Shown: positions 2,259-60,433, numbered from the stretch's first letter. The stretch: 64,000 nucleotides of DNA from an uncultured Verrucomicrobiae bacterium (GCA_963809845.1 CAWELO010000014.1:157307-221306), one strand, 5' to 3'. Numbers and translations are program-made. The notes: generated by a model not told the origin, from the letters alone.

Positions 2259-2840
2259 TCAGGTGGTGCCGGGTTTCACCAACGTGGCAATTTGCATCCT
2301 AAAGGAGAGCTTCTCGCGTTCAGCGGACGTCAATCCCGACACCGGTTCCACGGTCAGGTTAAGGACGCGGCTATAAGGGAACTGGTTTTCGAAGTCGGCC
2401 AGGAACTTGCCCAGATCGTTGAAGGTGGCCGTGCCGCCGATGGTCAGGGCGGCCTGCTTGTAGGGGAAGCCCGGCAGCATGGACATTTCGCGCGGTCCGT
2501 CGATCTGGCTGTACTGAGGAATATCGACCCGGTACGAAAGCTTGAATTGGCGGATGGTATTGATGAACCAGGAATATAAATCCCCCGACGCCATGCCTTC
2601 TTCGATTTTGTCCAACTGCTTCCGGGTATCACACAGGTGGGCCTCGATGAGGCTGGCTTCCTGGATGGTCTGCTTCATTTGCTCGAGCTTTTGCTCCGCC
2701 GCCTGGCGTTTGCTCGCGAGACTGGCCCGGGCTTGGTACTCCGGCCGGATCAGGCCGTACCCGAGGCCGGCGATTACGCCAACCGTGATGAGCGCCACCA
2801 GCGCGAGCTGTTTGCGTTTTTCGGGGGTGAGCTTATTCAT
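2259..2840 (-). CDS. pilO: Type IV pilus assembly protein PilO
   Basis: I start the ORF at MNKLTPEKRKQLALVALITVGVIAGLGY (one TM helix followed by coiled coil). Its ATG overlaps the pilN stop as ATGA (2840-2837). Position is third in the pilMNO order. Confidence 0.7.
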   Translation of the reverse strand: MNKLTPEKRKQLALVALITVGVIAGLGYGLIRPEYQARASLASKRQAAEQKLEQMKQTIQEASLIEAHLCDTRKQLDKIEEGMASGDLYSWFINTIRQFKLSYRVDIPQYSQIDGPREMSMLPGFPYKQAALTIGGTATFNDLGKFLADFENQFPYSRVLNLTVEPVSGLTSAEREKLSFRMQIATLVKPGTT

Positions 2841-3508
2841 CGTGTCCTTTCGGGGTAGCGGCACTCCAGCGTGAATTGAACGCAAGGTTTGCCGTCGAGA
2901 AACTGCGGAGGCGACAGGCTGGTCAGGCGGACCTCGTTGCTGCCGCCCAGGGCAGCTCGAAAGTAGGGGGATTCTGCGATCGCCTTTTTGAACTTGTTGA
3001 CCTGGTCGCCGGGGTTGGCCCCGCTGTCGCGCGCGTCGAGTGTCACGATGATTTTTTCCGTGACGCTTGCGCGTTTGCCCGGGATGACGCGCTCGTCGGC
3101 GCCAGTCTTGGGCTTGACTTCCTCGTTATAGACGTAGATCTGGTCGCCCCGCACCCGGAGCAGTTGGACATCATCGGCGGTGGCTTGCTGGAGGGAATTG
3201 AGGAGCGTGCCGTACAGGAGGCGGTTCGTGGCCATCTCTTGGAGCGCGGCCAACCGGCTAATGGTTTCGTTAAGCTTGCGCTGGTTCTCGAGCACCTGCT
3301 GGAACCCGTTGGTTTTGGAGGAAAGCTGGGCTTCGAGCCGGTTGACTTCACCGCGAGCCCACATCCCCTTGGCCCAGAGTGAACTCCACCAGGCCAGCAT
3401 GAGACAGACGATGAAAACACCCGCCCAGATGGCCCGTTTTACCGGGTCGCGCCGGCGCATTTCTTCCAGGGCCTGGGCTTCGGCGAGCAGGTTGATGCGT
3501 ATGGGCAT
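2837..3508 (-). CDS. pilN: Type IV pilus assembly protein PilN (fimbrial assembly family)
   Basis: The N-terminus MPIRINLLAEAQALEE...AIWAGVFIVCLMLAWW is the canonical PilN INLLP-type start followed by a TM helix. The gene lies directly downstream of pilM. Confidence 0.8.
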   Translation of the reverse strand: MPIRINLLAEAQALEEMRRRDPVKRAIWAGVFIVCLMLAWWSSLWAKGMWARGEVNRLEAQLSSKTNGFQQVLENQRKLNETISRLAALQEMATNRLLYGTLLNSLQQATADDVQLLRVRGDQIYVYNEEVKPKTGADERVIPGKRASVTEKIIVTLDARDSGANPGDQVNKFKKAIAESPYFRAALGGSNEVRLTSLSPPQFLDGKPCVQFTLECRYPERTR

Positions 3509-3512
3509 AGGC

Positions 3513-4586
3513 TTAAAAGGCTCCCAACCCCGCGCCCACGGCCACCGTCAGTTGCGGGGACACATGGTCGATCTCGGCGGCTTGTTGCGCGGGCAAGCTG
3601 GCTTCCAGAGCGCCGACCGGGCTCCAAGGTTTGCACTCCACCATCAGTTCGGTTTGCAGCATCTGCACGATGAACTCGGAGCGGGCGGACCCGCCGCTGA
3701 TATACACGCCGGAGACGGTCTTGTCCTGCTGGTGCTCGAAAAAGTCGATGGAGGCACGCAGTTCCCGGCCGAGGGGTGTCACCAGAGTTTCGAGGTTGGA
3801 CTGGACCTCCATGGGCATTCCGATCTTGATACCCTCGGCCTCGGCGTAACTGATTCCGAGCGATTCCGCGAGCCCATGGGTCAACCGGTCGCCGCCGATG
3901 TTAACCACCCGGCTCAGCATGAGTTCACCCTCTTGCAAGATGCATATCGTCGTGTTTTTAAACCCCACATCGACCAGGGCGATGACCTCGCGGGCGAAGA
4001 CCTCGGGCACGTTAAGCTCGAAGGCGTTTACCGGGCCAATGAGCCCGGGCACCACTTGATCGGCTTGCAGGCCGGTTGCGCGCACGGCCGTTTGGAGTTC
4101 GTCCATGAGTTGTCGTTTGGCTCCGGCGACCAGCACTTTGAATTTGAGTGCGTTGGAGCCGAGCTTGGGCTTTTCGACGGGCTTTTCGGCGGCGCGCGGC
4201 GGGATCACGAAGCAATCGAAGACGTGCCCCGGCAAATCCTGTTGCAGATAGTTCTTCGCGTTGTTCTTGAGGACCTGCCGCATATCACTCAGGGGCATCT
4301 GTGGGAAATCGGCGTGGCGCACGATGGAATCATTGACGCCGATGGCCAGGCTCAAGGATCGGGTTTTGGTGTCCAGTGCCTGGCATACTTTCTTCAGATG
4401 TTCACCCAGCAGGTCGGCCGAGAGATTTCGTTCGTACACCGGCGCATCCACCAAGGCGTAGGCGGTGAGCGCGAAGCGGTCGCCCTTGCGTTGCAAGTGA
4501 ACCGCTTTTGTGGTTCGTCCGCCCAAATCAACCGAGATCACCTGATCTCGCTTCTTCGCGGAGCCGTTTAGGAATGGCAATGCCAT
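3513..4586 (-). CDS. pilM: Type IV pilus assembly ATPase-fold protein PilM
   Basis: 357 aa with actin/HSP70-like motifs: ISVDLGGRTTK, ALVDVGFKNTTI, NIGGDRLT and VYISGGSA. Confidence 0.85.
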   Translation of the reverse strand: MALPFLNGSAKKRDQVISVDLGGRTTKAVHLQRKGDRFALTAYALVDAPVYERNLSADLLGEHLKKVCQALDTKTRSLSLAIGVNDSIVRHADFPQMPLSDMRQVLKNNAKNYLQQDLPGHVFDCFVIPPRAAEKPVEKPKLGSNALKFKVLVAGAKRQLMDELQTAVRATGLQADQVVPGLIGPVNAFELNVPEVFAREVIALVDVGFKNTTICILQEGELMLSRVVNIGGDRLTHGLAESLGISYAEAEGIKIGMPMEVQSNLETLVTPLGRELRASIDFFEHQQDKTVSGVYISGGSARSEFIVQMLQTELMVECKPWSPVGALEASLPAQQAAEIDHVSPQLTVAVGAGLGAF

Positions 4587-4797: not shown

Positions 4798-5676
4798 TCA
4801 GGCCAGTCGCTTTGCCCGCAGATGCAGTTCGTCCAGGACGGTTTGCAGCAGCGCGGAGACCTTTCCGCGCCACAGGGCGCCTACGATCACGGGGGGAAAA
4901 TCAGCCTTGGGCAACGGGAGCGCCTGGACGTTCGGGGGGAGCACCGCCTTGGGCACCAGGACAGACAGGCCAATCCCGAGTCCGTGGCTGACGTAGGTTT
5001 CGACGAGGTCGATGGAGCTCACTTCGATGCTGGTAAACCAATCCACGCCCAGCCGGGCCAGCCCCTGTTGAAAATGACGGCAGATCGTCTCGGCCTCGGG
5101 GAGGCAGATCAACGGCTCGTCGATCCGGTCTCGCTTCCACAGTTGCTCCGGAGCGGCCACCCCGCTGCCTTTCTCGACCAGCAGCGTCAAGGGCAATTCG
5201 AGCAAGGCAGCCGTATGAATGCCCGGGGCGGATTTCTTTTCGATCAATGTCACGGCCAGGTCGATCTCCTCCTTCTGCAGCAGGCCTTCCAATTCGGCCT
5301 GATACCCTTCGCGCAACGCCATCCGCAAGGCGGGATACCGTTTCCGCAGGCTGTGGAAGAACTCCGGAAAGTGATCGCGCAGGACAATGGTCGAGGCGCC
5401 GATCCGGATCTGGCGCGTCTGGCCGCCCTGCAAATCACTGGCCATGGCGTCCAGCCCTGAAAAGAAGGGATGAATGAAGCGGTAGAGCTTTTCCCCCGCG
5501 GGGGTCAGCAGGAAGGGCCGGCGCTGGAACAGCGTCACGCCGAGGTGCGCCTCCAGTTGGGCGACCTGTCCGCTGACGGCCGGTTGCTGGATGCCATAAG
5601 GAATATTGCGCACCGCTTCCATGATGCCTCCGTGCTTCGCCACATAGTAGAACAGTTCCAGGTGATGAATGTTCAT
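4798..5676 (-). CDS. LysR-family transcriptional regulator
   Basis: Start chosen at MNIHHLELFYYVAKHGGIMEAVRNIPYGIQQPAVSGQVAQLEAHLGVTLFQR, the LysR wHTH. A periplasmic-binding-like effector domain follows. Confidence 0.85.
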   Translation of the reverse strand: MNIHHLELFYYVAKHGGIMEAVRNIPYGIQQPAVSGQVAQLEAHLGVTLFQRRPFLLTPAGEKLYRFIHPFFSGLDAMASDLQGGQTRQIRIGASTIVLRDHFPEFFHSLRKRYPALRMALREGYQAELEGLLQKEEIDLAVTLIEKKSAPGIHTAALLELPLTLLVEKGSGVAAPEQLWKRDRIDEPLICLPEAETICRHFQQGLARLGVDWFTSIEVSSIDLVETYVSHGLGIGLSVLVPKAVLPPNVQALPLPKADFPPVIVGALWRGKVSALLQTVLDELHLRAKRLA

Positions 5677-5809
5677 AATCAGGTGCCGTTTTGACCGAAT
5701 GCTCGACTCCCATCGCCGATGCAGGGTCGTAAATCCGGTCAACCTATGGCAAGGCTAATGTGGTTAGCGGGGCGCTCCGGTGACTTCCCTTGGTTCGTGG
5801 GGGTTCATC

Positions 5810-5905
5810 GGATGGGGCGTCGCTACGCGACGCGCGGTCTCGGGGGGACGGGGATCCATGGACTGAAGTCCATGGCTACCGTCGTTCGTCGCTACGCGAC
5901 AGGGA
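5810..5905. repeat. REP-like cluster of GC-rich hairpins
   Basis: GCGTCGC-TAC-GCGACGC (5817-5833). CCATGGAC-TGAA-GTCCATGG (5856-5875). A second CGTCGCTACGCGAC copy at 5887-5900. Confidence 0.6.
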
Positions 5906-6077: not shown

Positions 6078-7547
6078 ATGTTTATCGTAATGGTCACACC
6101 GGAGTGCGCGCCGGCGGCCAAAGTTGGCGGCCTGGCGGACGTCGTGCAGGGGTTGTCCAAGGAGCTTGGACTGCGCGGCCACGCCGTGGAGATCATCCTG
6201 CCCAAATACGACTGCATGCGCTACGACCGCATCTGGGGACTCACCAAGTGCTACAGCGATCTCTGGGTCCCATTTTACCAGCATTGGATCCATTGCGATG
6301 TTTATTCCGGCTGGATGGACGGCCTGAAATGCTTCTTCATCGAACCCCACCTGGACCGCAATTTTTTTAACCGGGGCGTCTTTTACGGGCATCAGGATGA
6401 CGGCGAGCGCTTCGCCTTTTTCTGCCGGGCCGCGCTCGAGTTCATGCTCAAGACGAACAAGCACCCGGATATTATACACTGCCACGACTGGCAGACCGCG
6501 CTGGTGCCGGTGTTGCTTTACGAGATGTATCAGCAACTGGGCATGCGGCATTCCAGGGTTTGCTTTACGCTGCACAATGTTGGGCATCAGGGGATCAGTG
6601 GGGAGTTTTTGCTGCGGGCGGTCGGATTGAACCCCGCTCACCTTTTGAATCCGGATCGGTTGCTCGATGATCGCCACCGCGGGGCGATCAATCTGATGAA
6701 AGGCGGCATTGTGTATTCGAATTTCGTGACCACCGTCTCACCGCGATACGCCGACGAGATACGGTTTACCCCCCTGGGGATGGGCTTGCAGCGGATCTTG
6801 AGGGTGCACCACCAGAAATTTGGCGGTGTCCTCAACGGCATCGACTACGGGGTGTGGAACCCGGAATTGGACCCGCACATCGCCCGGCGCTATAGTATCG
6901 GGTCGTTGGACGATAAATATGCGAACAAGGAGGCGTTGCGGCATCGTTTGTGGCTGCGTCAGGGGATGAAACCGGTGGTGTCATTCGTCGGCCGTTTAGA
7001 TCCCCAGAAGGGGGTCGATCTGATTTTGCACGCGGTGCCCTATTGCCTCGAGCACGGCTGCCAGTTCGTGCTGCTGGGGTCGAGCTTGCAGGGTGACATC
7101 AACACCGTGTTCTGGAATTTAAAGTGGCGGTTTAACGACCACCCGGACTGTCATCTGGAAATCGGCTATAACGAAGAACTGGCGCACTTGATCTACGCCG
7201 GCTCCGATCTGATCCTGGTGCCCAGCGGATACGAGCCCTGCGGCCTCACCCAGATTATCGCGCTCCGGTACGGCACCGTGCCCGTCGTGCGAAACACCGG
7301 CGGGCTCGCCGACACCGTGTTCGACGCCAATTACGCCCCGAAGCCCTACCAAGAGCGCAACGGTTATGTGTTCAACGATTACAACTGGGCGGGGCTGGAA
7401 TCGGCGCTGCACCGGGCCATCGGCATGTGGCACCATTACCCGCAACATTTTCGCGAGCTGATGGCCAACGGCATGCGTTGCGACTATTCCTGGAACTACC
7501 CGGGACAGAACTATCTCAACATCTACAACCACATCAAAGCTCGGTGA
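6078..7547 (+). CDS. glgA: Glycogen/starch synthase (GT5, ADP-glucose type)
   Basis: 489 aa. The N-terminus MFIVMVTPECAPAAKVGGLADVV carries the KxGGL motif. It also has HCHDWQTAL and a C-terminal PSGYEPCGLTQIIALRYGTVPVVRNTGGLADTV. Confidence 0.95.
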   Translation: MFIVMVTPECAPAAKVGGLADVVQGLSKELGLRGHAVEIILPKYDCMRYDRIWGLTKCYSDLWVPFYQHWIHCDVYSGWMDGLKCFFIEPHLDRNFFNRGVFYGHQDDGERFAFFCRAALEFMLKTNKHPDIIHCHDWQTALVPVLLYEMYQQLGMRHSRVCFTLHNVGHQGISGEFLLRAVGLNPAHLLNPDRLLDDRHRGAINLMKGGIVYSNFVTTVSPRYADEIRFTPLGMGLQRILRVHHQKFGGVLNGIDYGVWNPELDPHIARRYSIGSLDDKYANKEALRHRLWLRQGMKPVVSFVGRLDPQKGVDLILHAVPYCLEHGCQFVLLGSSLQGDINTVFWNLKWRFNDHPDCHLEIGYNEELAHLIYAGSDLILVPSGYEPCGLTQIIALRYGTVPVVRNTGGLADTVFDANYAPKPYQERNGYVFNDYNWAGLESALHRAIGMWHHYPQHFRELMANGMRCDYSWNYPGQNYLNIYNHIKAR

Positions 7548-10500
7548 CGACATCCAGCCAGACGGTAACGGCGCAAACGGGCCTGAAGGTCGAGGCGCTG
7601 ATTTCCCGGCGAGACACCGGCCTCGAGGTTACCCTCAAGGCGCCGGCCGTGCCTCGCCTGCTTCTGCATTGGGGCTTGCGGCGGTCTGGTGCGGAGGCCT
7701 GGACGATACCGCCCCAGCCCGGCTGGCCTCCCGGGACCGTGGCCGCCGGCCCAGGTGCGTTGCAGACCCCGTTTGCCAAGATGGATGGCGAGGCCAGGCT
7801 CGTGATTCCGCTCAGCCCCGCTGACGATTACGCCGCGCTTGAGTTTGTCCTGTTTCTGCCGGACGAAGGACGCTGGGACAATAACAGCGGGCGCAATTAC
7901 CAAATTCCCCTCGGGGAGACGCCGGCCCCGGGCGCGAAACCGCTCGGAGTCCTGCGGGCGCAGGCGGGTTCGGAGGAGTCATTGCTGGACCGAGTCTTCG
8001 AGCTGGCGGGCGGAGGCCAGTTGGCGGTGGGTGTGGCCAAGGCCGGCGACCAATACCGGCTGCGCTTCGTTTGCGACCGCGCGCGACCACTCCTGCTCCA
8101 CTGGGGCGTGGCCCAGCGTTCGCCGCATGAGTGGCTGCTGCCGCCGGAAACCTCGCGTGGCAAGGCGGCAACCGTTTTTCATGACCAATCCGCGGAAACT
8201 CCGTTTTCACCGCAGGACGGTTTGAACACGCTCCTGCTGGGGTTTTCGGAACCTGAAGCCCCACTCGGGATCCAGTTTGTGTTGCGGGAAGGGCCGGAGG
8301 GCCGCTGGATCAATTACCGGGGCGGGAATTTCTACCTGCCGGTCAAGGTGCGCCAGGCAGCTATGGCCCACCCGGGCGCCCGCGAGCATGCGGACATCGC
8401 GGAGGAGATTGTGCGGGCGGAGACCACCCACAATTCCTGGACCCTGATGCACCGGTTCAACCTGTGTTACGACCTGCTCGACCGGGTCCGCGGCAGCCCC
8501 GATGGCTTGGCTCTGATTTATGTCTATTTGCGCTTTTCCGCCATTCGCCAGCTCACCTGGCAGCGCAACTACAATACCAAACCGAGGGAGCTGGCCCACG
8601 CGCAGGAACGCCTGACGCAGCGGCTCGCCGAGCTTTACCGCCAGGAGCCCGCCGGCCGGCCCCTGGCTCGCTTAACCCTTGCCACGGTAGGCCGGGGCGG
8701 CGAGGGGCAGCGCATTCGCGACGAGATCCTCAATATCATGCACCGCCACCATGTCAAGGAGGTGAGCGGTCATTTCCTCGAAGAGTGGCACCAGAAACTC
8801 CATAACAACACGACCCCCGATGACGTGGTGATTTGCGAGGCCTACCTGGCTTTTCTGAAGAGCAATGGTGACCAGGATACGTTCTATCGCACGCTCGAAG
8901 CGGGCGGGGTTACCCGCCAGCGCCTGGAGAGCTTCGAACGCCCGATTCGCAGCCATCCTGACTTCGTCCCGCACCTGAAGGACGCCCTCATTAATGATTT
9001 CAAGAACTTTCTAAAAATCCTCAAAGCCAGCCATTCCGGAACAGATCTCGAGACCGCGATCCAAGCCGCCCGAAGCCAGCTGGATGGAGACTTGCAGGGT
9101 CGGCTGAACCAGGTCTGGGAGCAACGCAACGCCCCTCCGGAGCGCGCCCTGGATCTCGTCCGGCAGATCACCGAGGCGCGCCGCCGATTATCGAGTTCAT
9201 TCAACCGAACCGGCGGATTGCGCGAGTTGCTTTACCTCGATTTGGCTCTGGAACAACTGCTGCGCGCCATCATCGAGCGGAACATCCATTTGCCTTTCGG
9301 CGGTGACCCGTTGGTGGACTTCATCGGCTGCGTTCTGGAGAACCTGACCTTGTCCTACGAAGAACCCGAGCTGGCCGCGTGCTCGAGGCATTGGGAACGG
9401 CTTCGATCCCTGCCGCGTTTTGGCGACGCGTGGTCGCTGCATGCCAAATCCGTGCTCGACCGCGCCGCCCGGGCGCTCGGCGCGTGGATTGACCACTTTT
9501 ACCAACTCTTGCAACCCAAGGCGGAGCTGCTCGGCGGGGGTTTTAAAGCCGAGTCCTGGACGATCACGCTGTTCAGCGAAGAGGTGGTGCGCGGCAGCAG
9601 CCTGGGGTTTGCGCTTTCGGGTTTGTTGCGCCACTTGGATCCGGTCTTGCGCCGGGCGGCCCACATTGGGAATTGGCAGATCATCAGCCGCGGTCGTGGG
9701 GCGGGGCGGGTTGAGGTGGTCGAGGCCTTGAGCTCGGTCCAGGGCCGCCGGTTCGACGGGCCGAGGGTTATTGTCGCCGACCGTGTGACCGGGGAGGAGG
9801 AGATCCCGGACCAAGTGACCGCGGTGATCGCTCCGGATGTGGTTGATATGGTCTCCCACGTGGCGGTGCGCGCCCGCAATGCCGGCGTGCTCTTTGCGTC
9901 GTGCCACGATCCGGAGCTGTTCCAGCACCTGAAATCCCTGCAGGGCCGGCAAGTCCACCTCGAAGTGAGCGCTGCCGGTGATGTTCTGGCTGCCGAGGGC
10001 ATGGGAGAAACCGCCACGCAACCTCCGGCACACGAGCCTCAACGGCTGAGTCTTCCCCAGCGATCCTTCACCCGCTACGCCATTCCGTTCTCCGATTTTA
10101 CTGAACACCTGGTCGGTGGCAAAGCGCTGCACCAGGCTGAACTGCGAAAGCGGTTGCCGGACTGGATTCACCAGCCGGCCTCCGCCGCGCTGCCCTTTGG
10201 CGTGTTCGAGCGCGTGTTGAGCTTTGAGTCGAACCGCAGCGTCGCGAAACGCTATCTCGAGCTGGCCCGGCAGACCGCCTCGACGGGCACGGAACCGCTG
10301 GCGGAGCTCAGGCAAGCCATCCTTTCACTCCAAGCCCCCGCTGAGTTGATAGAGGCCCTGCGCGCGGCGATGGCAGCGTCCGGGCTCGCCTGGCCTGACG
10401 ATTGGGAGACGGCCTGGACGCGGATCAAACAGGTTTGGGCTTCCAAGTGGAATGACCGCGCGTTTCTCAGCCGCCAGCGTATCGGTTTGCCCCACGACTC

Positions 10501-11032
10501 GCTCTTTATGTCGGTTCTCGTCCAGCAGGTCGTGCCGGCTGAATACGCTTTCGTGATCCATACCGTGAACCCCTCCAATGGGAATCGTGGTGAACTCTTC
10601 GCCGAAGTGGTGCTGGGTCTGGGTGAAACGCTGGTCGGCAATTACCCCGGTCGAGCGCTTGCGTTCGTGTGGAACAAGGAAACCCTGCAACCGCGCCTGC
10701 TCTCGTTTCCGAGCAAGAGCGTGGGTCTGTATGGTGAGGGCCTGATTTTTCGGTCGGATTCCAACGGCGAGGATCTGGCCGGCTACGCGGGGGCGGGCCT
10801 GTATGACAGCGTTTTGCTCAAAGAACCGCGGCGTGTTGAGCTGGATTATTCGAACGAGCGGCTGGTCTGGGATGAGTCCTTTCGCCAAAACCTGTTTGCC
10901 AGCATCGCCCGCATCGGCCAGGAGTTGGAGCGCGCCACCGGGTCACCCCAGGACGTCGAAGGCGCCCTCACCGGCAGTGACTATTACGTCGTGCAAACTC
11001 GACCGCAGGTGGGTCTCGATGCGCATGAATGA
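7544..11032 (+). CDS. Alpha-glucan,water dikinase (GWD)-like enzyme with two CBM45-like N-terminal repeats
   Basis: Start taken at GTG 7544, overlapping the glgA TGA as GTGA. No ATG lies downstream in frame near the glgA stop. Two N-terminal repeats contain LLLHWG (7658-7675 and 8090-8107) and RWDNNSGRNYQIPL / RWINYRGGNFYLPV. The phosphohistidine motif is DMVSHVAVRARNAGVLFASC (His codon 9857-9859). The C-terminus reads WASKWNDRAFLSRQ...YAFVIHTVNPSNG...GLGETLVGNYPGRALAF...FRSDSNGEDLAGYAGAGLYDSV...SPQDVEG...YVVQTRPQ, which closely matches my recollection of plant GWD1 (potato R1). Confidence 0.85.
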   Translation: MTTSSQTVTAQTGLKVEALISRRDTGLEVTLKAPAVPRLLLHWGLRRSGAEAWTIPPQPGWPPGTVAAGPGALQTPFAKMDGEARLVIPLSPADDYAALEFVLFLPDEGRWDNNSGRNYQIPLGETPAPGAKPLGVLRAQAGSEESLLDRVFELAGGGQLAVGVAKAGDQYRLRFVCDRARPLLLHWGVAQRSPHEWLLPPETSRGKAATVFHDQSAETPFSPQDGLNTLLLGFSEPEAPLGIQFVLREGPEGRWINYRGGNFYLPVKVRQAAMAHPGAREHADIAEEIVRAETTHNSWTLMHRFNLCYDLLDRVRGSPDGLALIYVYLRFSAIRQLTWQRNYNTKPRELAHAQERLTQRLAELYRQEPAGRPLARLTLATVGRGGEGQRIRDEILNIMHRHHVKEVSGHFLEEWHQKLHNNTTPDDVVICEAYLAFLKSNGDQDTFYRTLEAGGVTRQRLESFERPIRSHPDFVPHLKDALINDFKNFLKILKASHSGTDLETAIQAARSQLDGDLQGRLNQVWEQRNAPPERALDLVRQITEARRRLSSSFNRTGGLRELLYLDLALEQLLRAIIERNIHLPFGGDPLVDFIGCVLENLTLSYEEPELAACSRHWERLRSLPRFGDAWSLHAKSVLDRAARALGAWIDHFYQLLQPKAELLGGGFKAESWTITLFSEEVVRGSSLGFALSGLLRHLDPVLRRAAHIGNWQIISRGRGAGRVEVVEALSSVQGRRFDGPRVIVADRVTGEEEIPDQVTAVIAPDVVDMVSHVAVRARNAGVLFASCHDPELFQHLKSLQGRQVHLEVSAAGDVLAAEGMGETATQPPAHEPQRLSLPQRSFTRYAIPFSDFTEHLVGGKALHQAELRKRLPDWIHQPASAALPFGVFERVLSFESNRSVAKRYLELARQTASTGTEPLAELRQAILSLQAPAELIEALRAAMAASGLAWPDDWETAWTRIKQVWASKWNDRAFLSRQRIGLPHDSLFMSVLVQQVVPAEYAFVIHTVNPSNGNRGELFAEVVLGLGETLVGNYPGRALAFVWNKETLQPRLLSFPSKSVGLYGEGLIFRSDSNGEDLAGYAGAGLYDSVLLKEPRRVELDYSNERLVWDESFRQNLFASIARIGQELERATGSPQDVEGALTGSDYYVVQTRPQVGLDAHE

Positions 11033-11129
11033 CTCGCCCGGGCATGCGGTCGGAAGTGGGCGCGCCGTCCCCGGCGAAAGCGTTTGCCGCGCCGTTCCAA
11101 ACATTCCGCGCCAGCGCGTGCGCTAGGCC

Positions 11130-14100
11130 ATGCTCTACATCGGCAACCAGACCTCCTGCTGGACGCCCGCGCCTGCGGAGCCGTTTGATTATGCCTTGGC
11201 GCAGGGGTTCGACGCCTTCGAATGGTTTCCGGACAAGAAGCCCGAGGGCGGATGGGATGACGCCGATCTCGATGGCCCGACTCGGACACTGATCCGGGAA
11301 CGTGCTCGCGCCCTGGGGGTGCGCCTGTCGGTTCATGCCCGGTGGCAAGCCAGCCCATTTTCGTCTGAGGGGTATGCGCTCCTGTGGAACGATCTGGAAC
11401 TAGCGCGAGACCTCGGGGCCGCCCTGTTGAATATCCACTTGTCGCACGAACAAGGCGTTGAAGCGTTCATCCATGCCCTTCGACCGTTGATCGAAAGAAC
11501 GGCTCAAACAGGTCTGCAGCTTGCCATCGAGAACACGCCGCTCCATTCACCTGAAGACTTCAACGAATTCTTCGGCCGGCTCAAGCAGGCCATGCCGATC
11601 AACGCCGCCCACGTGGGGATGTGCTTTGACCTCGGACATGCCAATTTGTGCGCCGCCACGCGCAACGATTACCTGAAGTTCTACGATCGACTTGCCTCGC
11701 AGGTGCCGGTTATCCATCTCCATTTCCACGAAAACTGGGGCGATTCGGATTCACACCTGCCACTCTTTACCGGTCCGGCCGCGCGGGACGACGCCGGAAT
11801 CCGCGGCTTGCTGGACCGGCTCCGGCGGCGAACGTTCGAGGGATCGGTCATTCTCGAACAATGGCCCACTCCCCCGTCGCTTCTGGACCAGGCGCGAGAT
11901 CGCCTGCTGCAGTTGTGGAGTGTCGAGGTGAAGACGGGAGCGCCCGTCGAGCCTGTGGTCGCTTCGGCTTCGGTCCCAGAAAAATCCGTCGCCCCCAAGC
12001 CGAGGGAGGAAGCGGCGGCTCATCCCGGCGACCCTCCGCTCGAGGAGGGGAGGGACCAAGGCCGAGGATCAGCGGCTACCGCCACGGCCGAATCTGGCCG
12101 GGCGCCGGGGGCCGCCGCCACGTCCGACGAGTTTATCGGCCGGCTGACCACTGGAAACCAGCGCGCTCGTAGCTGGCGTGAGAAGCTGGATTTGGTGCTC
12201 CACCTTTTGACCGATGGAACGCATCCGATTGCCGCGGAGGGCTTGATCGATCTTGCCATTTACCTGCGATTCCTCGGGACCGGCGAGATCCCCTGCGTGG
12301 AAGACGGGCGGCACTTCCGTCCGGCGAGTCACGCCCGGATTTCCGCTCAAATCCAGGAGGGTCTGGGGCGCGTGACGGGCAATGGAAATGAATTCATCGT
12401 GCGCCGGATTTGGCCCTGGCTGCCTTCCGCCGCGCCCGCCTTTCAGCGCCCGGAGCCTCTGACCCGGATTCGGGACATCGCGCACCGGAACGACATCGAT
12501 CCAGATCTGAAGCGAGAGCTCAAAACGACGCTTCAGAACAAGCTGCACCGCTGTGCCGGGCCGGAGGACCTGGCCACCTCCTCGGCTATTCTGCGGCGCA
12601 TTACCGCTCCGGGCGCCGCGTATTCGCCGGGCTTCGTCGAACAATTCAAGATCTTCCACGAGGAGCTCAAGGAGTTCTTTAACGCGCAATCGCTGGATCA
12701 ACGCCTCGAAGAACTTAAGCCGTCGGCCTCTCCGAGCCAGAGGGAACGGATCGAAGGGTTCCTGCGTGGACGACACGGCAAAACGGTCCCGGAGCAGTTG
12801 GCGGCCCTGCGGCTGCTGACCACGTTGCGTGGGGCACTGCTTCCTGCCGGCAAGCCGCCCGCCGCGGCCCCAACCCAGCCTCATATCCTGGCCGATGTGG
12901 CCCTCGAAGGTTTTGCGTTTGTACTGCTCAGCCAGATCATCAACGGCTCTGAATCCCTGGTATCGGAACAAGGCCGGAAATCTCAGATCGAGGCGCTCAG
13001 CCTGGCCTTGGACAACCTGGTGTTCAGTGGTATCGAGGTGTCCGAATCCCAGGCCCTGGCCCACGAACTTCGCGAATTCACATCCTCGAAGGTTGCACCA
13101 CTCGAGGGCGCGGTCGCGCGGCGTGCGGCCGCGGTCAGAGGCCCGTTCCTCCCTCCCGGCAGCCCATCTGCCCGCGCTCGATCCCCGCGATGATTTGCTC
13201 CGATTCAAAGCCAGCTTGTTGCGCGCTCGCCGCCTGGCGGACAGCTTCAGTGAACGAATCCTGGCGTTGTTTGGGGGCCGGGCGGAACAGCTTGGCCGGG
13301 CTTTGGGGGTGGCCGATCATGCGATTCGGGTTTTCTGCGAATCCGAACTTCGTGGACACCTCGTTTTTCAGATTTCGAAGCTGGTTTCGAGTTTGCTGCG
13401 TCAGGTTCGAACCGAGCTTCGCGCCTCACCTTGGGATGTGCTGGTGGCCGGGCGCGCGCTCGGGCGGCTTACCACCGTCGATACTTTGGATCAACTCCAA
13501 CCGGTGCCCGGCGAATCGATCATCGCGCTGCTCCAGCAGGCGGCGGGGGACGAGGAAATGCCGAAGAACCTGACCGCGGTGCTGCTGGCGCACGAGCTCC
13601 GCACCTTTCGCACTTGGGCGTCCGCGCCCGTCAAGCCGGCGTGGTGTTTGCCACCTGCGAGGAGCCGCGGGAATGGGACCGTCTGCGCGAGCTCGCAGGC
13701 CAGACCATTTCCGTCAACGCCCTTCCCGATGCGGTGACCTGGGAGATCGCCATCGCTCCCAAACCGCCCCTTGCCGAAGCGCCGCGCCGCCGGCCTCGAA
13801 TCCCTTCCATTCGCCTGAATCCCGAGGCCGCCTGGTTCCCGCTCGAACGGGCAACCCCCGAGACGACCGGCGGCAAGGCCAATGCCGCCCGCCGGTTGGC
13901 CGAACTCGCGCGCACGTCGCCGGGTTTCCACACGCCCCGCTCGCTGGTCGTCCCCTTCGGTGTCCTGGAGCAAACCTTGAGCACCGTCCCGGGAGTGGCG
14001 GCGGAATATCGAGCTTTGAAGGAAGGAATCAACGGGCTCCCGCTCCGAGGCGATCCCCGCCCGAGCCCAAAAGCTGCGCGATTGCCTGGAAAAGCTGGCC

Positions 14101-14802
14101 GTGCCACCGGCGATCGGTTCTGAGATCACCCATCAGTTTTCTTCCGAGACCGCGCTGATCGTTCGCTCGAGCGCCAATTGCGAGGATCTCGAAGGTTTTG
14201 CGGGCGCCGGCCTCTACGAATCGGTCCTCAACGTGCCGGCTTCGGAGGTGGGCCCAGCGATCCGGGCGGTGTGGGCTTCGCTCTGGACCGATCGCGCAAC
14301 GCTCAGCCGCCGCGAGGCGGGCATCCCTCACGAGCAGGCCCATATGGCGGTGCTGATCCAGGAATTGTTGGATCCCGATTTGTCCTTTGTGCTGCACACG
14401 GTCAATCCGCTGACCTCGAATGCGCGGGAGCTGTATGCTGAAATTGTGGTGGGCTTGGGCGAGACGCTTGCCTCCGCGGCCACCCGCGGCAATCCCTATC
14501 GGTTGGTAAGTCACAAGGACTCCGGCGCGGTAACCACCTTGGCCTTCGCCGACTTCAGCCAGGCATTGCACCCCAAGGCCGGAGGCGGCTTGCGCCGGGA
14601 AACCGTGGACTACGCGGCGATCGATCTCAGCCGTTGTTCGGAGGCTCGGCAGCGGCTGGGCGCGCAGTTAGCTTCAGTTGGGGCCGCCGTCGAGCGCGCC
14701 TTCGGCGGGCCGCAGGACATCGAAGGAGTCGTGGTCCAGGGTCGAGTTTATCTTGTCCAAACCCGCCCCCAGCAGGGATTATCGCGCCGAGAGCCAAAAT
14801 GA
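11130..14802 (+). pseudogene. Xylose-isomerase-fold TIM barrel fused to a phosphoglucan,water dikinase (PWD/GWD3)-like enzyme; reading frame broken three times (~13.10-13.18 kb, ~13598, ~14048)
   Basis: Frame 0 (11130-13193) holds the TIM barrel (LAIENTP, CFDLGHAN, IHLHFHENWGDSDSHLPL), a Pro/Ala linker and the GWD-type middle region (LIDLAIYLRFLGTGEI). The sequence continues in ORF 12829-13737 (DDLLRFKASLL...AVLLAHEL). It then continues in ORF 13431-14123 (PHLSHLGVRARQAGVVFATCEE; His codon 13611-13613). It ends in ORF 14101-14802 (IVRSSANCEDLEGFAGAGLYESV...VWASLWTDRATLSRR...SFVLHTVNPL...GLGETLAS...TLAFADFS...PQDIEGVVVQGRVYLVQTRPQ). The PHLSHLGVRARQ, SFVLHT and TLAF-NFS motifs match my recollection of plant PWD. 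Confidence 0.8.
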
Positions 14803-15914
14803 AAACCGTGCTTCCCACCGGGGTCAAAACGCTGGCCCTTTTTGAAAAGCGCTTCGAGGGCGACGACGCCCTGTTCGAGTTGGCCCGGCGGCGTTTCCTC
14901 AAAGCCGGCATGGGAGCGGAAATGCACGCCGGCACACCGGAGCAGTTGCAGTCGCTCTTGAAGTTCCGGCCGGGGCAAGAGGCCCCGCTGGTGGTCCATC
15001 TGCCGCGCGATTTCAATCTCATCGACGGTTCGAGCCCCGGGAGGATCCTGGAGCTGGCCACCCGGTTCGCCGGTCAAATCCATGGCCTGGTGATTCACGA
15101 TCACCCCACGATCGCCACGCGCCGTGCGGAATATGTCGCGGCTGCCTGGAAACTGGATGACCAGTTCGAGAAGATCGAGGGCTGCCCGATGCTGTTTGTG
15201 GAATACGCCGCCGGGGTCGAGCCGGGAGAGTTCGCCGGGTTCTTTGCCGAAATCCCCGACCTGGAGCACCTGAGCGCCTGCATCGATATCGGGCATGTGG
15301 GGATTCGCGCCGCGCAAGCGGACTACGCTCGAAAGCACGGGGGCGACGATATCTTCCTCTTGAAGGCTCAGGGCCCGAGGCTGCCACAGGTCATCGCGGA
15401 AGTGCAAGCTTCGGTGGCCGCAGGGGTGGCGGAGGTTTTGGAACTGATCCAGGCGCTCTCCACGCTCCGCAAGCCCTTCCACTTTCATTTGCACGACGGC
15501 CATCCGCTTTCGACGTTCAGTCCTTTCGGGGTTTCCGATCACTTGAGCTTCTTCAGCGAGATTCCGCTGAACTTCGAGCACGAGGGCCGCCGGACTGTGC
15601 CGGCCATGTTCGGGCCAGGGGGCCTGGCCAAGGTGGTCAGCCGGGTCCTCGGGTTCATGATCCCCGAGCGCGTTTCTTTTACCCTCGAAATTCATCCCAC
15701 CGGCGAACGCTTGCCCCCGGGGGCGGAGTCCTCCTTATTTGACCACTGGACCGACAAGACCAATGCGGAGCGCATGAACCACTGGATCGAGCTGCTGAGC
15801 CGTAATCGCGCACTGTTGCGCCAGACCATTGATTCAGCCCTCGCACTCAAAAACCCTCAACCGCTTATCCCGGCACCACCGGTCGAGATGGAGAGTGGAG
15901 CCTGCGACATTTGA
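14799..15914 (+). CDS. Xylose-isomerase-like TIM-barrel protein (AP endonuclease 2 / sugar-phosphate isomerase-epimerase family), paralogous to the N-terminus of the preceding gene
   Basis: Start at MKTVLPTGV, with an ATGA overlap on the upstream stop (14799-14802). Motifs are LVIHDHP, LFVEYAAG, ACIDIGHVG and FHFHLHDGHP...VSDHLSF. The equivalent fused-domain motifs are IENTP, FDLGHAN and HLHFHEN...DSHLPL. Confidence 0.75.
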   Translation: MKTVLPTGVKTLALFEKRFEGDDALFELARRRFLKAGMGAEMHAGTPEQLQSLLKFRPGQEAPLVVHLPRDFNLIDGSSPGRILELATRFAGQIHGLVIHDHPTIATRRAEYVAAAWKLDDQFEKIEGCPMLFVEYAAGVEPGEFAGFFAEIPDLEHLSACIDIGHVGIRAAQADYARKHGGDDIFLLKAQGPRLPQVIAEVQASVAAGVAEVLELIQALSTLRKPFHFHLHDGHPLSTFSPFGVSDHLSFFSEIPLNFEHEGRRTVPAMFGPGGLAKVVSRVLGFMIPERVSFTLEIHPTGERLPPGAESSLFDHWTDKTNAERMNHWIELLSRNRALLRQTIDSALALKNPQPLIPAPPVEMESGACDI

Positions 15915-15954
15915 CCTGGACCACACCCAATCCTCGAGCCCGCTTAGCTTTTTC

Positions 15955-17135
15955 ATGCGAACGATTTCTCACGCTCTCGTCCTGAATCTCCATCAACCCC
16001 TGGGCAATCTCGAAGCCCTGCTCGAGACCAAGGAATGGGAGGCTAAGGAAATCCTTTTTGCCATGGATCGCATCCCGCGTTCTCTTTGGGGCTATGAAGA
16101 TGTCGGGCGGGTGCACCTCGCTCTTTCGGGAACGCTATTGGAAACCCTCTCGCGCTCCGACTTCCAGGAACGCGTGTATGGGATCGTGAAATGCGGCGAT
16201 CTGCTGTGGCACCTGCAAAATGACCGCGCTCTGCAGGTGCTGGGCACCGGTTATTACCATCCCGTTTTGCCTCTGATACCCGCGGAGGACTGGCAGGCGC
16301 ATTTAGAGCGCTGGCAGGGCATCGCGCGGCACTTGTTTTGGCGCGCCCGCTTCCCCGGCTTCTGGCCGCCCGAGATGGGCTTTTGCATGGAGCTCATCCC
16401 GCTGCTCAAACGGTTGGGCTATGAATATGTGCTGGTGGACAGCCAGCATGTCGCACCCGTCACCCCCATGCGTTGGGAGGAAATCCGCTACCGTCCGCAT
16501 GTCGCCCGCCATGGCGGCGAGGAGATCATCGTCGTGGTCCGGGATCGTGAACTCTCCGACGCGCAAGAAGCGGGGATGGATACCGGCTGGTTCATGCACG
16601 AGGTGCGCGAGCGGACCCGGTTTTGCGACTTCCCCCCGCTGGTCACCACTTGCAGCGACGGCGACAACGGCGGCTGGTTCCGCAACCTCTCCGAAAAGGG
16701 CAACTTTTGGGGGGTATTCTATTCAGCCGTTGCTCGAACGGGTGCGGCGGGGTGAAACCGAAGTGCGTCCGGTTTTCATTGACGAATACCTTCGGGGCCC
16801 ACGGCGCGCATGGCGAGGTGCGCGTGCAGACCGGGGCTTGGAACACCGGCTGGCACAGTGGCTTCGGCTTCACTCAGTGGACGGGCACCCAGGTACAGAA
16901 GGACGCCCTGCGGCGGCTCGCCGAAACCAGCCGTGCCTTCCACGAGGTGGCGCAGGCCACCGGGGGAGCCGGAAGTGGAAGTCCGGACAGCCGCCGCCGG
17001 CTCGAAGAGGCCCATTGGCGCCTGCTCCGAGCCGAGACGAGCTGCAATTTCTTCTGGGGCGAGGCCTGGGTGCCGCGCTGCCACGCGGATCTCGATCAGG
17101 TCTGGGCCATCCTGAATGGCCTCAACGCGAGGTGA
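15955..17135 (+). pseudogene. Glycoside hydrolase family 57 protein, two +1 frameshifts (~16714 in a G6 run, ~16799 in a CCC run)
   Basis: MRTISHALVLNLHQPLGN (the HQP motif), GTGYYHPVLPLI, FWPPEMGF and TTCSDGDNGGWF. The protein then continues in the next frame as YSIQPLLERVRRGETEVRPVFIDEYLRG. The third frame follows with HGAHGEVRVQTGAWNTGWHSGFGFTQWTG...NFFWGEAW. Confidence 0.8.
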
Positions 17136-29909: not shown

Positions 29910-31236
29910 TCAGGTCTTCGAGGCTTCGATGAATTTGATGATGGCGCGGACGTCGTGGTAGTTGCACTTCCAGTTGTGCGCTTTGGCGGTGTTTTTGGGT
30001 TTGCCATCCGCCGTGACGGTGTCGAGCCAGATGCCGTCGGCAGGGTTGGCCTGGTAGGTCAGGACGAAATTCAGGAGCTGGTCGAGGGCCTGGGAGTAGT
30101 CGGGGTTCGGCCGGTGCTGGAGCGCCTCAGTGAGGGCGGCCAGCATTTCCGCCTGCACCCACCACACCTTATCGGTGTCGGTCGCGGGTTGATCGTCGAA
30201 ACCCCGGCTGTACAGGCCGCCGCGGGTGTGGTCGAAACCATACTTCAGCGCGTGCTCCAAATGAGCATAGAAATGGCCCCAGGCGGGCGGTTGCCCCAGG
30301 ACGCGCTGGGCACGGATCATCAGCCAGGCAAATTCGACATTGTGCCCGTAGGAAACCCCGGCGCTCGACGGTTCGGTGACCGGCGTCCAATCCAGGTGCC
30401 GGTGGAACGCCGACTTGCCGGGGTCTTCGGGATAGAACCAGGTGGCGTTGATGCGCACTGCCTCTTCGAGCGACAGGCGGACCCCTGGATCCTTGGTCGC
30501 CTCGTAGAGTTCGGTGAGGGACTCGAGCAGGTGCAAGTGGGTGTTGGCGCTCTTGCACCCGGCGCGTTCGACGATGACCTCCGCCTTGGGATCCAGGATG
30601 GGCGTCCAGTCCCGTTGGAAATGTTCGAGCCAGCCGCCATGGTTCGGGTCATGGGCGCGCTTCTGCAAAACCTGGTACAGATCCATCGCGTGGCGCAGGG
30701 CGTCCTTGTCCCCGCTCGCCCGGTAGGTACTCGACCAGGCCGTAAATCGCGAAGGATTCACCATAAACAATCTTCCGCTGGTCCAGGGGCTTGCCGGTGA
30801 CGTCGGTTGTCCAATAGTAGCCGCCGTCCTTGGGATCCAGAAAATGATCCACCAGGAAACGGTAGCCTTGTTCGGCCGCTTTTAAATAGTCGCGATGGCT
30901 GCTGTTGAAGCCTTTCAGATACGCATGTGAGAACCCCCAAATCATGCGGGATTGGGTCACCAACTGTTTTTCGGTGGCCGGTGGCGAGGCCTTGGCGGCA
31001 TCGTCGGAGAGGAGGTAGCCGCCGTATTTTTGGTCGATGGCCGTGTCGTACCAATAGGGCAGGATTTTCTGCACCAACTGGGCATTTAATTCACGGGCAT
31101 ACTCGGAGCGCTCTTTGGCCAGAGCCTCCGCGGGCTGGTAAAACCCCAGCAGCAGGCAGGACAAACCGCACACGCCCCACCATCGCACGCCCGCGGCGAT
31201 GGTTTGATGGGGATAGAGCTTCGGCATCATGCCCAT
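29910..31236 (-). pseudogene. N-acylglucosamine 2-epimerase (AGE) superfamily (alpha/alpha)6-barrel protein, one frameshift at ~30727
   Basis: ORF 30649-31236 gives a signal/TM segment, then ILPYWYD...GGYLLS...QSRMIWGFSHAY...GGYYWTTD...IVYGESFAIYGLVEY. The protein continues in ORF 29910-30770 as YRASGDKDALRHAMDLYQ...HGGWLEHF...ANTHLHLLESLTELY...GHNVEFAWL. Confidence 0.75.
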
Positions 31237-41075: not shown

Positions 41076-41077
41076 AG

Positions 41078-41392
41078 GTCGGAACCGAAGCCCAGAGTTG
41101 CGCCCGCATCCAGCAACGACCGGAACCTGTAGGCGCCTTGGGCGCGTTCCCGTCCGAGGCGCTTCTCACACCATCGCCCGTCGTCGGCGGCATCGGTACG
41201 GTTGCATGGAAGCGATGACATGTTCGGCGGCGAAGCTGGGGAAATCGCCGTGGCCCAGGTGCTGAGCGTGCTCGATGCGGAAGCGCCGGTCGCGCGGGCC
41301 GTTCGTTAGAGCGGCCAGGCGGTAGAGTCGAGGATGCGCCGGTTTGCCTCCTCACCGATGCGGTTGCCGGCGATGGCGATGGCCTGTGCCCG
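41078..41392 (-). pseudogene. Decayed amidohydrolase-family remnant (internally deleted, frameshifted, 3'-truncated at the repeat array)
   Basis: Minus-strand pieces lie in three frames: [12 protein letters not shown]..., [10 protein letters not shown]...VIASMQPY, and [36 protein letters not shown]. The last runs directly into repeat sequence at 41078. Confidence 0.5.
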
Positions 41393-50019: not shown

Positions 50020-50304
50020 AGCGCCGGTCCGGGCTATCACCTGTTGGATCCTGGCGGCGGCAACGGGGTGAAACCAAGGCTCCTGCTGGACGCCCTGATC
50101 GAGCCGGCCGCCTGCCTCCCGGTGGAGGTCTCGGGTGAACAGCTCGTCGCTTGCGCCAGCCAGCTCGCGCGCGAACACCCCCGGCTCCGGGTTCCGCCGC
50201 TCCGCGCGGATTACACCCGGGAGTTCGAACTCGCCGACTTGCCTGCGAACGGAGCGCGGCGCGCGGTGGACAGCGGGAGGCATCCCTGCCACACTTTTCC
50301 CGCA

Positions 50305-57336: not shown

Positions 57337-57510
57337 GGGAGCTCCTCGGCATGAACCGCGCCATCCGCAAGCGGATTGCCGAGGCGCCAGAGTTTCATGG
57401 CCGGATACTAACGCCTGGGGCGCGCCGAGTAAAGTTGAGCGGCGATGATCAGGCGCGCCTCGGAACCGGGCGCGCCTCGCAATCGGGTGAGGCTCGTCGT
57501 CGGTTGATTT

Positions 57511-57590
57511 GTCCCGAAGGGACAGGCGAAAACAGCCCAATGCTTCAGCATTGGGTCAGGGGCAGACAAAGCGACAAGTCCCGAAGGGAC
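57511..57590. repeat. Hairpin triplet (family D): GTCCC-gaa-GGGAC / CCCAATGC-ttca-GCATTGGG / GTCCC-gaa-GGGAC
   Basis: Hairpins at 57511-57523, 57536-57555 and 57578-57590. A degenerate copy lies at ~60248-60292. Confidence 0.6.
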
Positions 57591-57852: not shown

Positions 57853-58379
57853 TCTCGGACGAGGCGCCTATTCCTTTTTTTCTTGGCTTCGGGCGGGGAC
57901 CGGCGTAGGAATGCATCGTTCTTTGATAGCGGTGGATCTTGTGTCCACCTGTAGTCACAGCCAGGCGTCAGGGAACCCCGTGAGAATCGGGGACGGTTGC
58001 GCCACTGTAACGGGTTACGAGCTCCCACCCGCGGGTTAACGCCGCGGCTTGAGCCACTGGTTTCTTTCGAGACCGGGAAGGCGGGAGTGAGGTTTTGATG
58101 CCCGAAGTCAGGATATCGGCTTGGTTGTGCTCGTCATGGTCGTCGTCAAAGACAGGCGAAATCCTGTCCGCCCGGCGGCCAACTTCTCCGTCAAGAGAAG
58201 GATGAGGCCAGCCCGGCGCGCGTGTGCGCGCGGGGATTCGTCGGATGCCTTCATTCTCCGTTTTGCCGAGGGCTGAAGGTTTTTTGTTGCCACTGAACAG
58301 GTTTCCTTCGGCTTCCGCGCTGGTCTCTCAATCGCAACCCGCCCTGTGTGTCCCACGGGGCAATTGAAAGATCAGCCTT

Positions 58380-60196: not shown

Positions 60197-60433
60197 TTCG
60201 ACCCGATTGGATTTCCTGGGAAAGATGGGCAACCTGCCGGCAGTTTCATCCCGGAGGGACGCCTGGGAATAGCCCAACGCTTCAGCGTCGGGATCGAGGA
60301 TTTGAAGCGGGCAAGACCCGACGGGACGGCTGAGTGCCGTGCATCAACCAATAAGTTTGTCCTGCATCCCCGCCGCGCCGCGGAGCAACAAGGTGCTGGA
60401 CTGCGGCCAGGCCAAACCCCAAATTGCCTGCGA

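Follow-up and report, generated by a model that had tools for sequence, protein, structure and literature searches.

Starch turnover in plants depends on GWD (alpha-glucan, water dikinase), which phosphorylates C6, on PWD (phosphoglucan, water dikinase), which subsequently phosphorylates C3, and on the phosphatases SEX4 and LSF2 that remove the phosphates; phosphorylation of the glucan is considered a hallmark of starch in eukaryotes. Bacterial homologues of GWD form the gold branches of a published tree of the enzyme, where they are described as possibly laterally transferred (PMC6260743), phosphorylation of bacterial glycogen is treated as an open question, with the enzyme phosphorylating animal glycogen unknown (PMC13011383), and a structural study of GWD1 from 2026 makes no reference to bacteria (PMC13553574). 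Here we analyze a 64,000-nt stretch of DNA from an uncultured Verrucomicrobiae bacterium (GCA_963809845.1 CAWELO010000014.1:157307-221306; hereafter the window), and in it a cluster of five genes on the plus strand at 6078-17135. A sequence-only reading had described these as glgA, a GWD-like dikinase, a TIM barrel fused to a PWD-like dikinase, a second TIM barrel and a GH57 gene, together forming a putative phosphorylation and dephosphorylation cycle. We refer to the fusion as DK2, to its N-terminal barrel as TIM1 and to the second barrel as TIM2. The five same-strand genes and their boundaries hold upon reading of the open reading frames (ORFs; Table 1), but since two of the five, DK2 and the GH57 gene, are frameshifted in this copy, the observation is only partly confirmed.

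Like the GWD1-PWD-SEX4-LSF2 system of plants and algae, the cluster combines two GWD-family dikinases and two candidate phosphate removers in the vicinity of glucan synthase and hydrolase genes. Unlike that system it is bacterial and organized as an operon, its substrate is presumably glycogen-like, and endonuclease-IV-like metal TIM barrels, rather than a CX5R phosphatase, are the candidates for phosphate removal. We judge the chances about even that it represents, in a member of the Verrucomicrobiae, an alpha-glucan phosphorylation module that is widespread among bacteria and in which metallo-phosphoesterase candidates replace SEX4 and LSF2.

The two dikinases

The first dikinase, the same protein as on the record for the deposited contig, possesses the full GWD1 architecture of plants and algae: tandem family-45 carbohydrate-binding modules (CBM45), followed by central, phospho-histidine and C-terminal ATP domains, with Ig_N_CWD1 twice, GWD1_pHisD and PPDK_N as the Pfam order. 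The domain plan of StGWD1 likewise includes CBM45_1 and CBM45_2 (PMC13553574). The best CBM45-type stretch spans residues 150-266 (7991-8341), and the central helical domain, proposed to serve glucan binding and phosphotransfer, matches 9HA9/9QVI in the PDB (E = 6e-88). Moreover, the putative catalytic residue His772 (codon 9857-9859) resides in the motif DMVSHVAVRARN, which is of the xSHVSVRARN type.

When 1.84 billion representatives were scanned in full with HMMER, 585 clusters scored below 1e-30. Among the top 150 matches, at 37-44% identity to the query, are cotton GWD1 (42% over about 1025 residues), Nymphaea GWD2 and proteins of Picocystis, Cyanidium, Gloeochaete, Volvox, Mesostigma and dinoflagellates; for the GWDs of cotton, Nymphaea, Picocystis, Cyanidium and Gloeochaete the identity amounts to 40-47%. 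Over the conserved core, GWDs from other bacterial phyla reach 44-58% identity, and the eukaryotic forms stand at about the same distance. In a neighbor-joining (NJ) tree (Kimura distances, 123 sequences, 847 columns), GWD and DK2 are separated with 100% bootstrap. By these matches and this split, the first dikinase groups with eukaryotic GWDs and not with other dikinases. Congruent with the GWD-like label of the sequence-only reading, and judged by architecture, histidine motif and the match to potato GWD1, the protein is a true GWD homologue; in an alpha-glucan it would phosphorylate glucosyl residues at C6 with the beta-phosphate of ATP.

The branching order of bacterial and eukaryotic sequences within GWD received 15-47% NJ bootstrap, and the tree does not resolve which side is ancestral; the main bacterial clade falls among algal groups, with Auribacterota and Margulisbacteria near the root. 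Two divergent homologues from Candidatus Auribacterota (P0368) and Candidatus Margulisiibacteriota (P0375) share 34-36% identity with the GWD of the window. They lie outside the main bacterial clade and closest to the DK2 outgroup, with poor support, a placement that bears on the origin of GWD.

DK2 starts with an AP_endonuc_2 TIM barrel and continues with GWD1_pHisD and PPDK_N, an order shared with intact homologues of about 1150 residues; PPDK_N matches the last of its frame pieces at 124.6 bits. It can be aligned with the GWD of the window over the central, histidine and ATP domains (residues 263-1148, 26% identity, E = 2e-59), matches the GWD1 central domain weakly (E = 5e-5) and carries the motif PHLSHLGVRARQ, whose histidine is invariant among homologues. 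The plant PWD counterpart of this motif resembles HLSHLGVRARQ. Because of the phospho-histidine and PPDK_N domains and the alignment to the window GWD, we place DK2 in the GWD family; its domain order is that of GWD/PWD, and it has a GWD/PWD-type core with a catalytic histidine. CBM20 was on the other hand not detected by Pfam in the window pieces or in the intact homologues, nor was any other recognizable carbohydrate-binding module, and a TIM barrel occupies the position where plant PWD has CBM20. Thus, of the PWD-like designation the core and the domain order stand and the CBM20 does not; the label is not established, the name itself deriving solely from an automatic JGI/IMG product name, 'phosphoglucan, water dikinase'. 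The fusion of barrel and dikinase is intact in relatives but broken into several frames in the window.

Gene neighborhood in related loci

Intact fusions of about 1150 residues form at least 648 clusters at 90% identity and are found in at least 293 GTDB species representatives, distributed over Verrucomicrobiota, Desulfobacterota, Nitrospirota, Planctomycetota (including anammox bacteria), Beta- and Gammaproteobacteria, Chloroflexota, Acidobacteriota and Myxococcota. We compared 80 related loci, of which 51 and 70 held enough sequence to score an upstream GWD and a downstream TIM2, respectively. A GWD homologue ends at most 400 nt upstream of the fusion in 40 of the 51, and TIM2 starts at most 400 nt downstream in 63 of the 70. 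The conserved core is GWD, then the TIM::dikinase fusion, then TIM2, and as this order recurs in dozens of loci and at least seven phyla, it exceeds what chance would produce. The neighborhood conservation anticipated by the earlier reading is hence observed, yet its five-gene unit reduces to these three genes, with glgA (25 of 80 loci) and the small GH57 (8 of 80) as variable accessories.

The module is embedded among glycogen genes. Recurring neighbors further include DUF4912 (20 loci), a GH57 branching enzyme (16), GlgB (7), isoamylase (5) and glucan phosphorylase (GlgP, 3), and a relative with 60% identity displays glgA, GWD, fusion, TIM2 and GH57 together with a GH13/hDGE-type gene. The core genes are also joined physically: TIM1, DK2 and TIM2 form a single ORF in three loci (L043, L047 and L060), and TIM2 is fused to a GH13/hDGE_amylase in three others, from Nitrospirota (L036, L046 and L077). 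With its presence in 20 of the 80 loci, DUF4912 is therefore apparently part of an extended glucan cluster. The DUF4912 gene is located directly upstream of the gene for the GH57 branching enzyme, and the pair follows TIM2 at a distance of a few kb, for example in L009, L010, L011, L022, L025, L028, L039, L040, L065, L069 and L070.

These neighbors bear on the possibility that the dikinases act on a non-glucan acceptor, either a small molecule, like the rifampin or phenolic phosphotransferases, or another polymer, with the linkage to glycogen genes being incidental. PEP synthase, PPDK and rifampin phosphotransferase share the ATP-grasp domain and the swivelling phospho-histidine chemistry with the window dikinases, the ATP domains resemble those of PEP synthase and rifampin phosphotransferase, and the absence of a carbohydrate-binding module in DK2 fits such an acceptor. 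However, both window dikinases match GWD1_pHisD and differ from these enzymes in the acceptor domain, and the order of central, histidine and ATP domains is that of GWD/PWD, unlike that of PPDK and rifampin phosphotransferase (PMC13553574). Considering in addition the two CBM45-type domains of the GWD homologue, its central domain matching potato GWD1, and that the recurrent neighbors and fusion partners are all alpha-glucan enzymes, we hold a non-glucan acceptor to be very improbable.

A scan for the CX5R phosphatase motif [HV]CxxGxxR[ST] recovered no match in window ORFs of at least 120 residues, in agreement with the claim that no dual-specificity phosphatase is encoded here. The 855 ORFs of the 80 related loci yielded a single match, probably by chance.

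Two TIM barrels and a candidate glucan phosphate cycle

Endonuclease IV (Nfo) is a trinuclear-zinc AP endonuclease and 3'-phosphoesterase. TIM1 and TIM2 belong to the same TIM-barrel superfamily, with an identity of only about 14-22% and in a context of glucan metabolism as compared to DNA repair for Nfo. TIM1 aligns to E. coli Nfo with 83% probability and E = 9.5e-6 (hhalign). The zinc ligands of Nfo, which we take to be H69, H109, E145, D179, H182, H216, D229, H231 and E261, a list reportedly originating from Hosfield et al. 1999, all have counterparts in TIM1 (H69, H103, E134, D167, H170, H198, D207, H209 and E243), invariant in 24 of 24 fusions. The residue types at the Nfo positions fit the list, and a nine-residue trinuclear site, with H109 named, is described for Nfo (PMC5636811). 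TIM1 is accordingly predicted to carry the nine-residue trinuclear metal site of Nfo, and the link to endonuclease IV drawn in the sequence-only reading emerges strengthened. Neither barrel has an NCBIfam or Pfam match to the Nfo family proper; we therefore do not class TIM1 or TIM2 as endonuclease IV, but only as sharing the plan of its metal site.

The AlphaFold2 (AF2) model of TIM1 (predicted local distance difference test score, pLDDT, 90.8) retrieved MJ1311 of Methanocaldococcus jannaschii (3WQO, 'D-tagatose 3-epimerase-like protein') as the top Foldseek match at a template-modelling (TM) score of 0.73, followed by the AP endonuclease of African swine fever virus and ketose 3-epimerases. 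MJ1311 is also the closest solved relative by sequence (E = 1e-5), and shares the D-x2-H, HxHxH and D-x-H motifs. It reportedly keeps the nine zinc ligands of endonuclease IV and lacks the DNA groove (Uechi et al. 2014), and unlike TIM1 it is a stand-alone archaeal protein without dikinase fusion, at about 19% identity. The sole curated NCBIfam model to touch TIM1 is CbiR (E = 5e-8, 32.6 bits against a cut-off of 105). CbiR of Akkermansia, an AP_endonuc_2 superfamily phosphodiesterase of cobamide remodelling, cuts the link between sugar and phosphate in a substrate other than DNA (PMC7733943), thus the superfamily can hydrolyze such links outside DNA, although substrate and gene context differ from those of TIM1.

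TIM2 is highly divergent. No Pfam, NCBIfam or PDB match was obtained by sequence, nor a PDB match by profile, and its at least 1664 homologues are all named 'hypothetical'. PDB matches came from the AF2 model alone (pLDDT 91.8), with Foldseek placing T. maritima Endo IV (4HNO) first, at a TM score of about 0.45-0.55, and UlaE, an L-xylulose-5-P 3-epimerase, second. Its N-terminal half aligns to TIM1 with 96% probability (hhalign), such that the claim of two paralogous xylose-isomerase-fold proteins holds at the level of profile and structure, but not as a Pfam match of TIM2. The invariant residues H67, H100, E135, D163 (26 of 27), H166, H230, D247, H248 and E297 follow the order of the nine ligands, and TIM2 apparently keeps counterparts of those of Nfo.

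In the arrangement that we favor, GlgA would make the glucan, and the GWD-type dikinase, through two CBM45, the central glucan domain, the swivelling phospho-histidine domain and the C-terminal ATP domain, would transfer the ATP beta-phosphate to glucosyl residues. DK2, with a metal TIM barrel at its N-terminus and no carbohydrate-binding module, would add further phosphate. TIM1 and TIM2, with their putative endonuclease-IV-type nine-residue tri-metal sites, would bind and hydrolyze the phosphate esters of the glucan, and so fill the role of the plant dual-specificity phosphatases SEX4 and LSF2. In such a cycle, phosphorylation would open or solubilize the glucan for the GH57 and GH13 enzymes, after which the phosphate would be removed. 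The dikinase part is well supported by homology, architecture and context, and the phosphoesterase part, which we infer from the ligand pattern and from precedent, is the weakest link. A glucan as substrate and the phosphorylated positions are presumed, and a semi-crystalline glucan, as had been suggested, is conjecture.

It is also conceivable that the dikinases phosphorylate an alpha-glucan while the barrels are not phosphatases: they may be metal-dependent enzymes of the sugar isomerase, epimerase or lyase type, with glucan ends or released sugars as substrates, or TIM1 may be a non-hydrolytic binder of phospho-glucan that targets DK2 to glucan phosphorylated by GWD. Pfam places TIM1 in the xylose-isomerase-like family, its Foldseek matches include D-tagatose/psicose 3-epimerases (TM score 0.65-0.71) and the 3-keto-D-glucoside 4-epimerase YcjR, and the second-best fold match of TIM2 is an epimerase as well. 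In support of a targeting module, TIM1 sits N-terminally, where PWD has CBM20 and GWD has CBM45, and plant PWD needs pre-phosphorylated starch. Ketose epimerases, however, have the Glu-Asp-His-Glu set alone; TIM1 carries this set plus five further invariant ligand-type residues, matching the two other zinc sites of endonuclease IV, which argue for a multi-metal site over the single metal site of the ketose-epimerase type. The invariant histidine cluster of TIM2 is richer still, and no recurrent dehydrogenase that could supply a keto-sugar substrate is present in the neighborhood. Aggregated, we regard this alternative as unlikely, albeit one to be taken seriously.

Several points weigh against metallo-phosphoesterase barrels in a glucan phosphate cycle. 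The fold of TIM1 fits ketose 3-epimerases and the 3-keto-glucoside epimerase about as well as endonuclease IV, the four core ligands are common to those sugar enzymes, and the closest solved relative, MJ1311, is without known function. The list of Nfo ligands is backed only by the residue types and PMC5636811. For TIM2 the alignments are weak: against Nfo, where four ligands align, the N-terminal half reaches 23.5% probability, and against TIM1 the C-terminal half aligns in register at 9%. Furthermore, there would be little point in joining a kinase to a phosphatase that undoes its work, unless they differ in the positions or the times at which they act, and the bacterial members are known from sequence and prediction alone.

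In open-access papers and bioRxiv, with most subscription journals outside this scope, the GWD/TIM::dikinase/TIM2 module, the fusion, an endonuclease-IV-type site in a glucan context and the TIM2 family are undescribed. The claim that no bacterial operon with two dikinases had been described stands in that no description of the conserved module was found, and is qualified by the published bacterial GWD homologues (PMC6260743). Tentatively, and with less than even confidence, we propose that many bacteria (Verrucomicrobiota, Planctomycetota, sulfate reducers, Nitrospirota and methylotrophs) use this three-gene module to attach phosphate covalently to their storage glucan and to remove it again, that the metallo-TIM barrels constitute a new class of glucan phosphatases, non-homologous to SEX4, LSF2 and laforin, and that GWD is bacterial in origin rather than an invention accompanying the plastid. 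The multi-phylum operon would directly provide candidate enzymes for such a cycle in bacteria, a candidate function for the uncharacterized TIM2 family (at least 1600 members), a lead for MJ1311-like proteins and fresh data on the origin of GWD. If true, the possible new class of glucan phosphatases would be relevant for starch engineering and Lafora-type biology. The idea is testable, as at least one carrier, 'Desulfobacterota bacterium M19' (L068), is apparently cultured.

State of this copy and its surroundings

The single ORFs that had been described for the fusion and for GH57 are not present in the window. With the intact homologues P0004 and P0002 as tblastn queries, the DK2 gene reads in four frame segments, the frame changing three times, and its longest piece is a 687-residue ORF (11130-13193), which is the truncated product that the record for the deposited contig carries. 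At frameshift 2 a single C is missing from GAGCTC(C)CGCAC, four codons ahead of the catalytic histidine codon (13611-13613), and the Pfam phospho-histidine match breaks between two frames at profile position 57/58. The frame of the GH57 gene changes twice within 76 nt, and tblastn with the intact homologues of about 392 residues from L004, L014 and L015 matches it in three frames at 75-79% identity; no BE_C domain was found by Pfam and no NCBIfam family could be assigned. Frames were segmented in the whole window with a seven-state codon hidden Markov model (HMM), since a frame plot of GC at third codon positions (GC3) and a sliding codon score were too noisy, and by this model same-strand frame switches away from ORF ends are confined to DK2 and GH57.

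This copy is thus either mis-assembled or newly broken. In the latter case DK2 and GH57 would be recent pseudogenes and the module of this genome a decaying relic rather than a working system. Consistent with decay, the five frameshifts fall within 13.1-16.8 kb, one of them just before the catalytic histidine, their sites are runs of 1-3 nt and not long homopolymers, and the segmentation shows almost no comparable breaks elsewhere. A clustering of five events in 3.7 kb, with glgA, GWD and TIM2 intact and one split gene in the other approximately 58 kb, could indeed reflect real recent gene loss, and this too counts against a working module here. Conversely, repaired DK2 is free of in-frame stop codons and agrees with 14 intact homologues in 237 of their 242 invariant columns, the five changes being conservative, and repaired GH57 retains the identity to its homologues given above. 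That the adjacent glgA, GWD and TIM2 are undamaged likewise speaks against decay. An unrelated gene is split as well: a GlcNAc-2-epimerase-like gene on the minus strand, with no tie to the glucan cluster, is divided into overlapping ORFs in different frames (30649-31236 and 29910-30770), which match Pfam positions 14-89 and 93-346. In long-read metagenome-assembled genomes (MAGs), several related loci also exhibit stops or insertions in the same genes. Given the full conservation of the repaired proteins and the break in a gene of no relation to the cluster, we favor errors of assembly as the cause of the five frameshifts, and we deem decay of the module rather unlikely. Programmed frameshifting or phase variation was ruled out, as neither a slippery motif nor a long repeat is common to the sites and intact homologues are read without any shift.

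The remaining boundaries agree with those reported earlier. The GTG of the GWD gene (7544-7546) overlaps the TGA of glgA (7545-7547), a 97-nt gap ends at the ATG of DK2 (11130), and the ATG of TIM2 (14799-14801) overlaps the TGA of DK2 (14800-14802). The glgA gene, which is intact, matches Glyco_transf_5 in Pfam (E = 1e-68) and scores above the curated NCBIfam cut-offs of NF001905 (GlgA subfamily; 861 bits versus 560) and TIGR02095 (526 versus 328), assigning its predicted product to GlgA, the GT5 glycogen synthase; its cluster at 90% identity includes Verrucomicrobiae MAG proteins. Scans of 5.6-17.4 kb gave no excess of promoters (3 found, 1.8 expected from shuffled sequence) or terminators (10 found, 11.4 expected), leaving the gene overlaps as the computational signs that bear on co-transcription.

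Table 1. Coordinates of the cluster, its domains and frameshifts, and adjacent genes in the window
Feature	Position	Strand	Details
glgA, ADP-glucose-type glycogen/starch synthase (GT5)	6078..7547	+	intact, 489 aa
GWD-type alpha-glucan, water dikinase homologue	7544..11032	+	intact, 1162 aa, GTG start
Tandem CBM45-type Ig-like domains, GWD N-terminus	7544..8341	+	PF23166, 148.9 bits, two stretches
GWD central helical domain, aa 298-706	8435..9661	+	phmmer against potato GWD1 central-domain crystal chain 9HA9_A, E = 6.2e-88
GWD phosphohistidine domain	9671..9988	+	PF22973, 117 bits
GWD C-terminal ATP-binding (PPDK_N-type) domain	10223..11011	+	Pfam; PEP synthase / rifampin phosphotransferase chains, E about 1e-11
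TIM::dikinase fusion gene (DK2)	11130..14802	+	three frameshifts; repaired product 1223 aa
TIM1, xylose-isomerase-like / endonuclease-IV-like metal TIM barrel, DK2 N-terminus	11130..11930	+	PF01261
DK2 frameshift 1 (+1)	within 13083..13185	+	variable linker; exact base not locatable
DK2 frameshift 2 (-1)	13597..13601	+	GAGCTCCGCAC should read GAGCTCCCGCAC
DK2 frameshift 3 (+1)	~14043..14047	+	variable segment before ATP-binding domain 14125-14795
TIM2, second, highly divergent endonuclease-IV-like TIM barrel	14799..15914	+	intact, 371 aa
GH57-family gene, small	15955..17135	+	PF03065; ~392 aa once repaired; two +1 frameshifts
GH57 frameshifts (both +1)	16723 extra T; 16796-16799 extra base in GGCC	+	tblastn, DNA reading
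LysR-family transcriptional regulator, divergent from glgA	4798..5742	-	Pfam HTH_1 + LysR_substrate
PilM-like gene	3513-4586	-	upstream of LysR gene; Pfam
Small ORF	2837-3508	-	no Pfam match
Small ORF	2259-2885	-	sub-threshold T2SSM match only

The LysR-family gene, for which NCBIfam gave sub-threshold LysR matches only, may regulate the glucan cluster. An Acido-Lenti-1 RNA motif (Rfam) is present in the intergenic region of the two divergent genes, at 5856-5901 (+) and 177 nt upstream of the glgA start, with further matches at 57510-57555 (-) and 60247-60292 (-); the three score 37-43 bits, the Rfam gathering score being 37. The minus-strand genes at 2259-4586 have no evident tie to the glucan cluster. 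A fragmented proS was considered for the small minus-strand ORFs at 0.4-3.5 kb and rejected in favor of separate pilM/N/O-like genes.

Elsewhere in the window, six tandem copies of a unit of approximately 380 nt (38846-41135), each with a 300-nt core of 79-99% identity and a G-rich spacer of the GGCGGAGGG type, lie within a 2.7-kb stretch that contains no ORF of at least 150 residues in any frame. A cobalamin riboswitch (57946-58138, +, 62.8 bits) is located upstream of an ORF at 58380-59375. Finally, the ORF at 50044-51561 (+) has LarA-type lactate racemase domains, and residues 1-72 correspond to the middle of a histidine-specific methyltransferase model (profile positions 67-138), an odd junction that may represent a truncation or a fusion.

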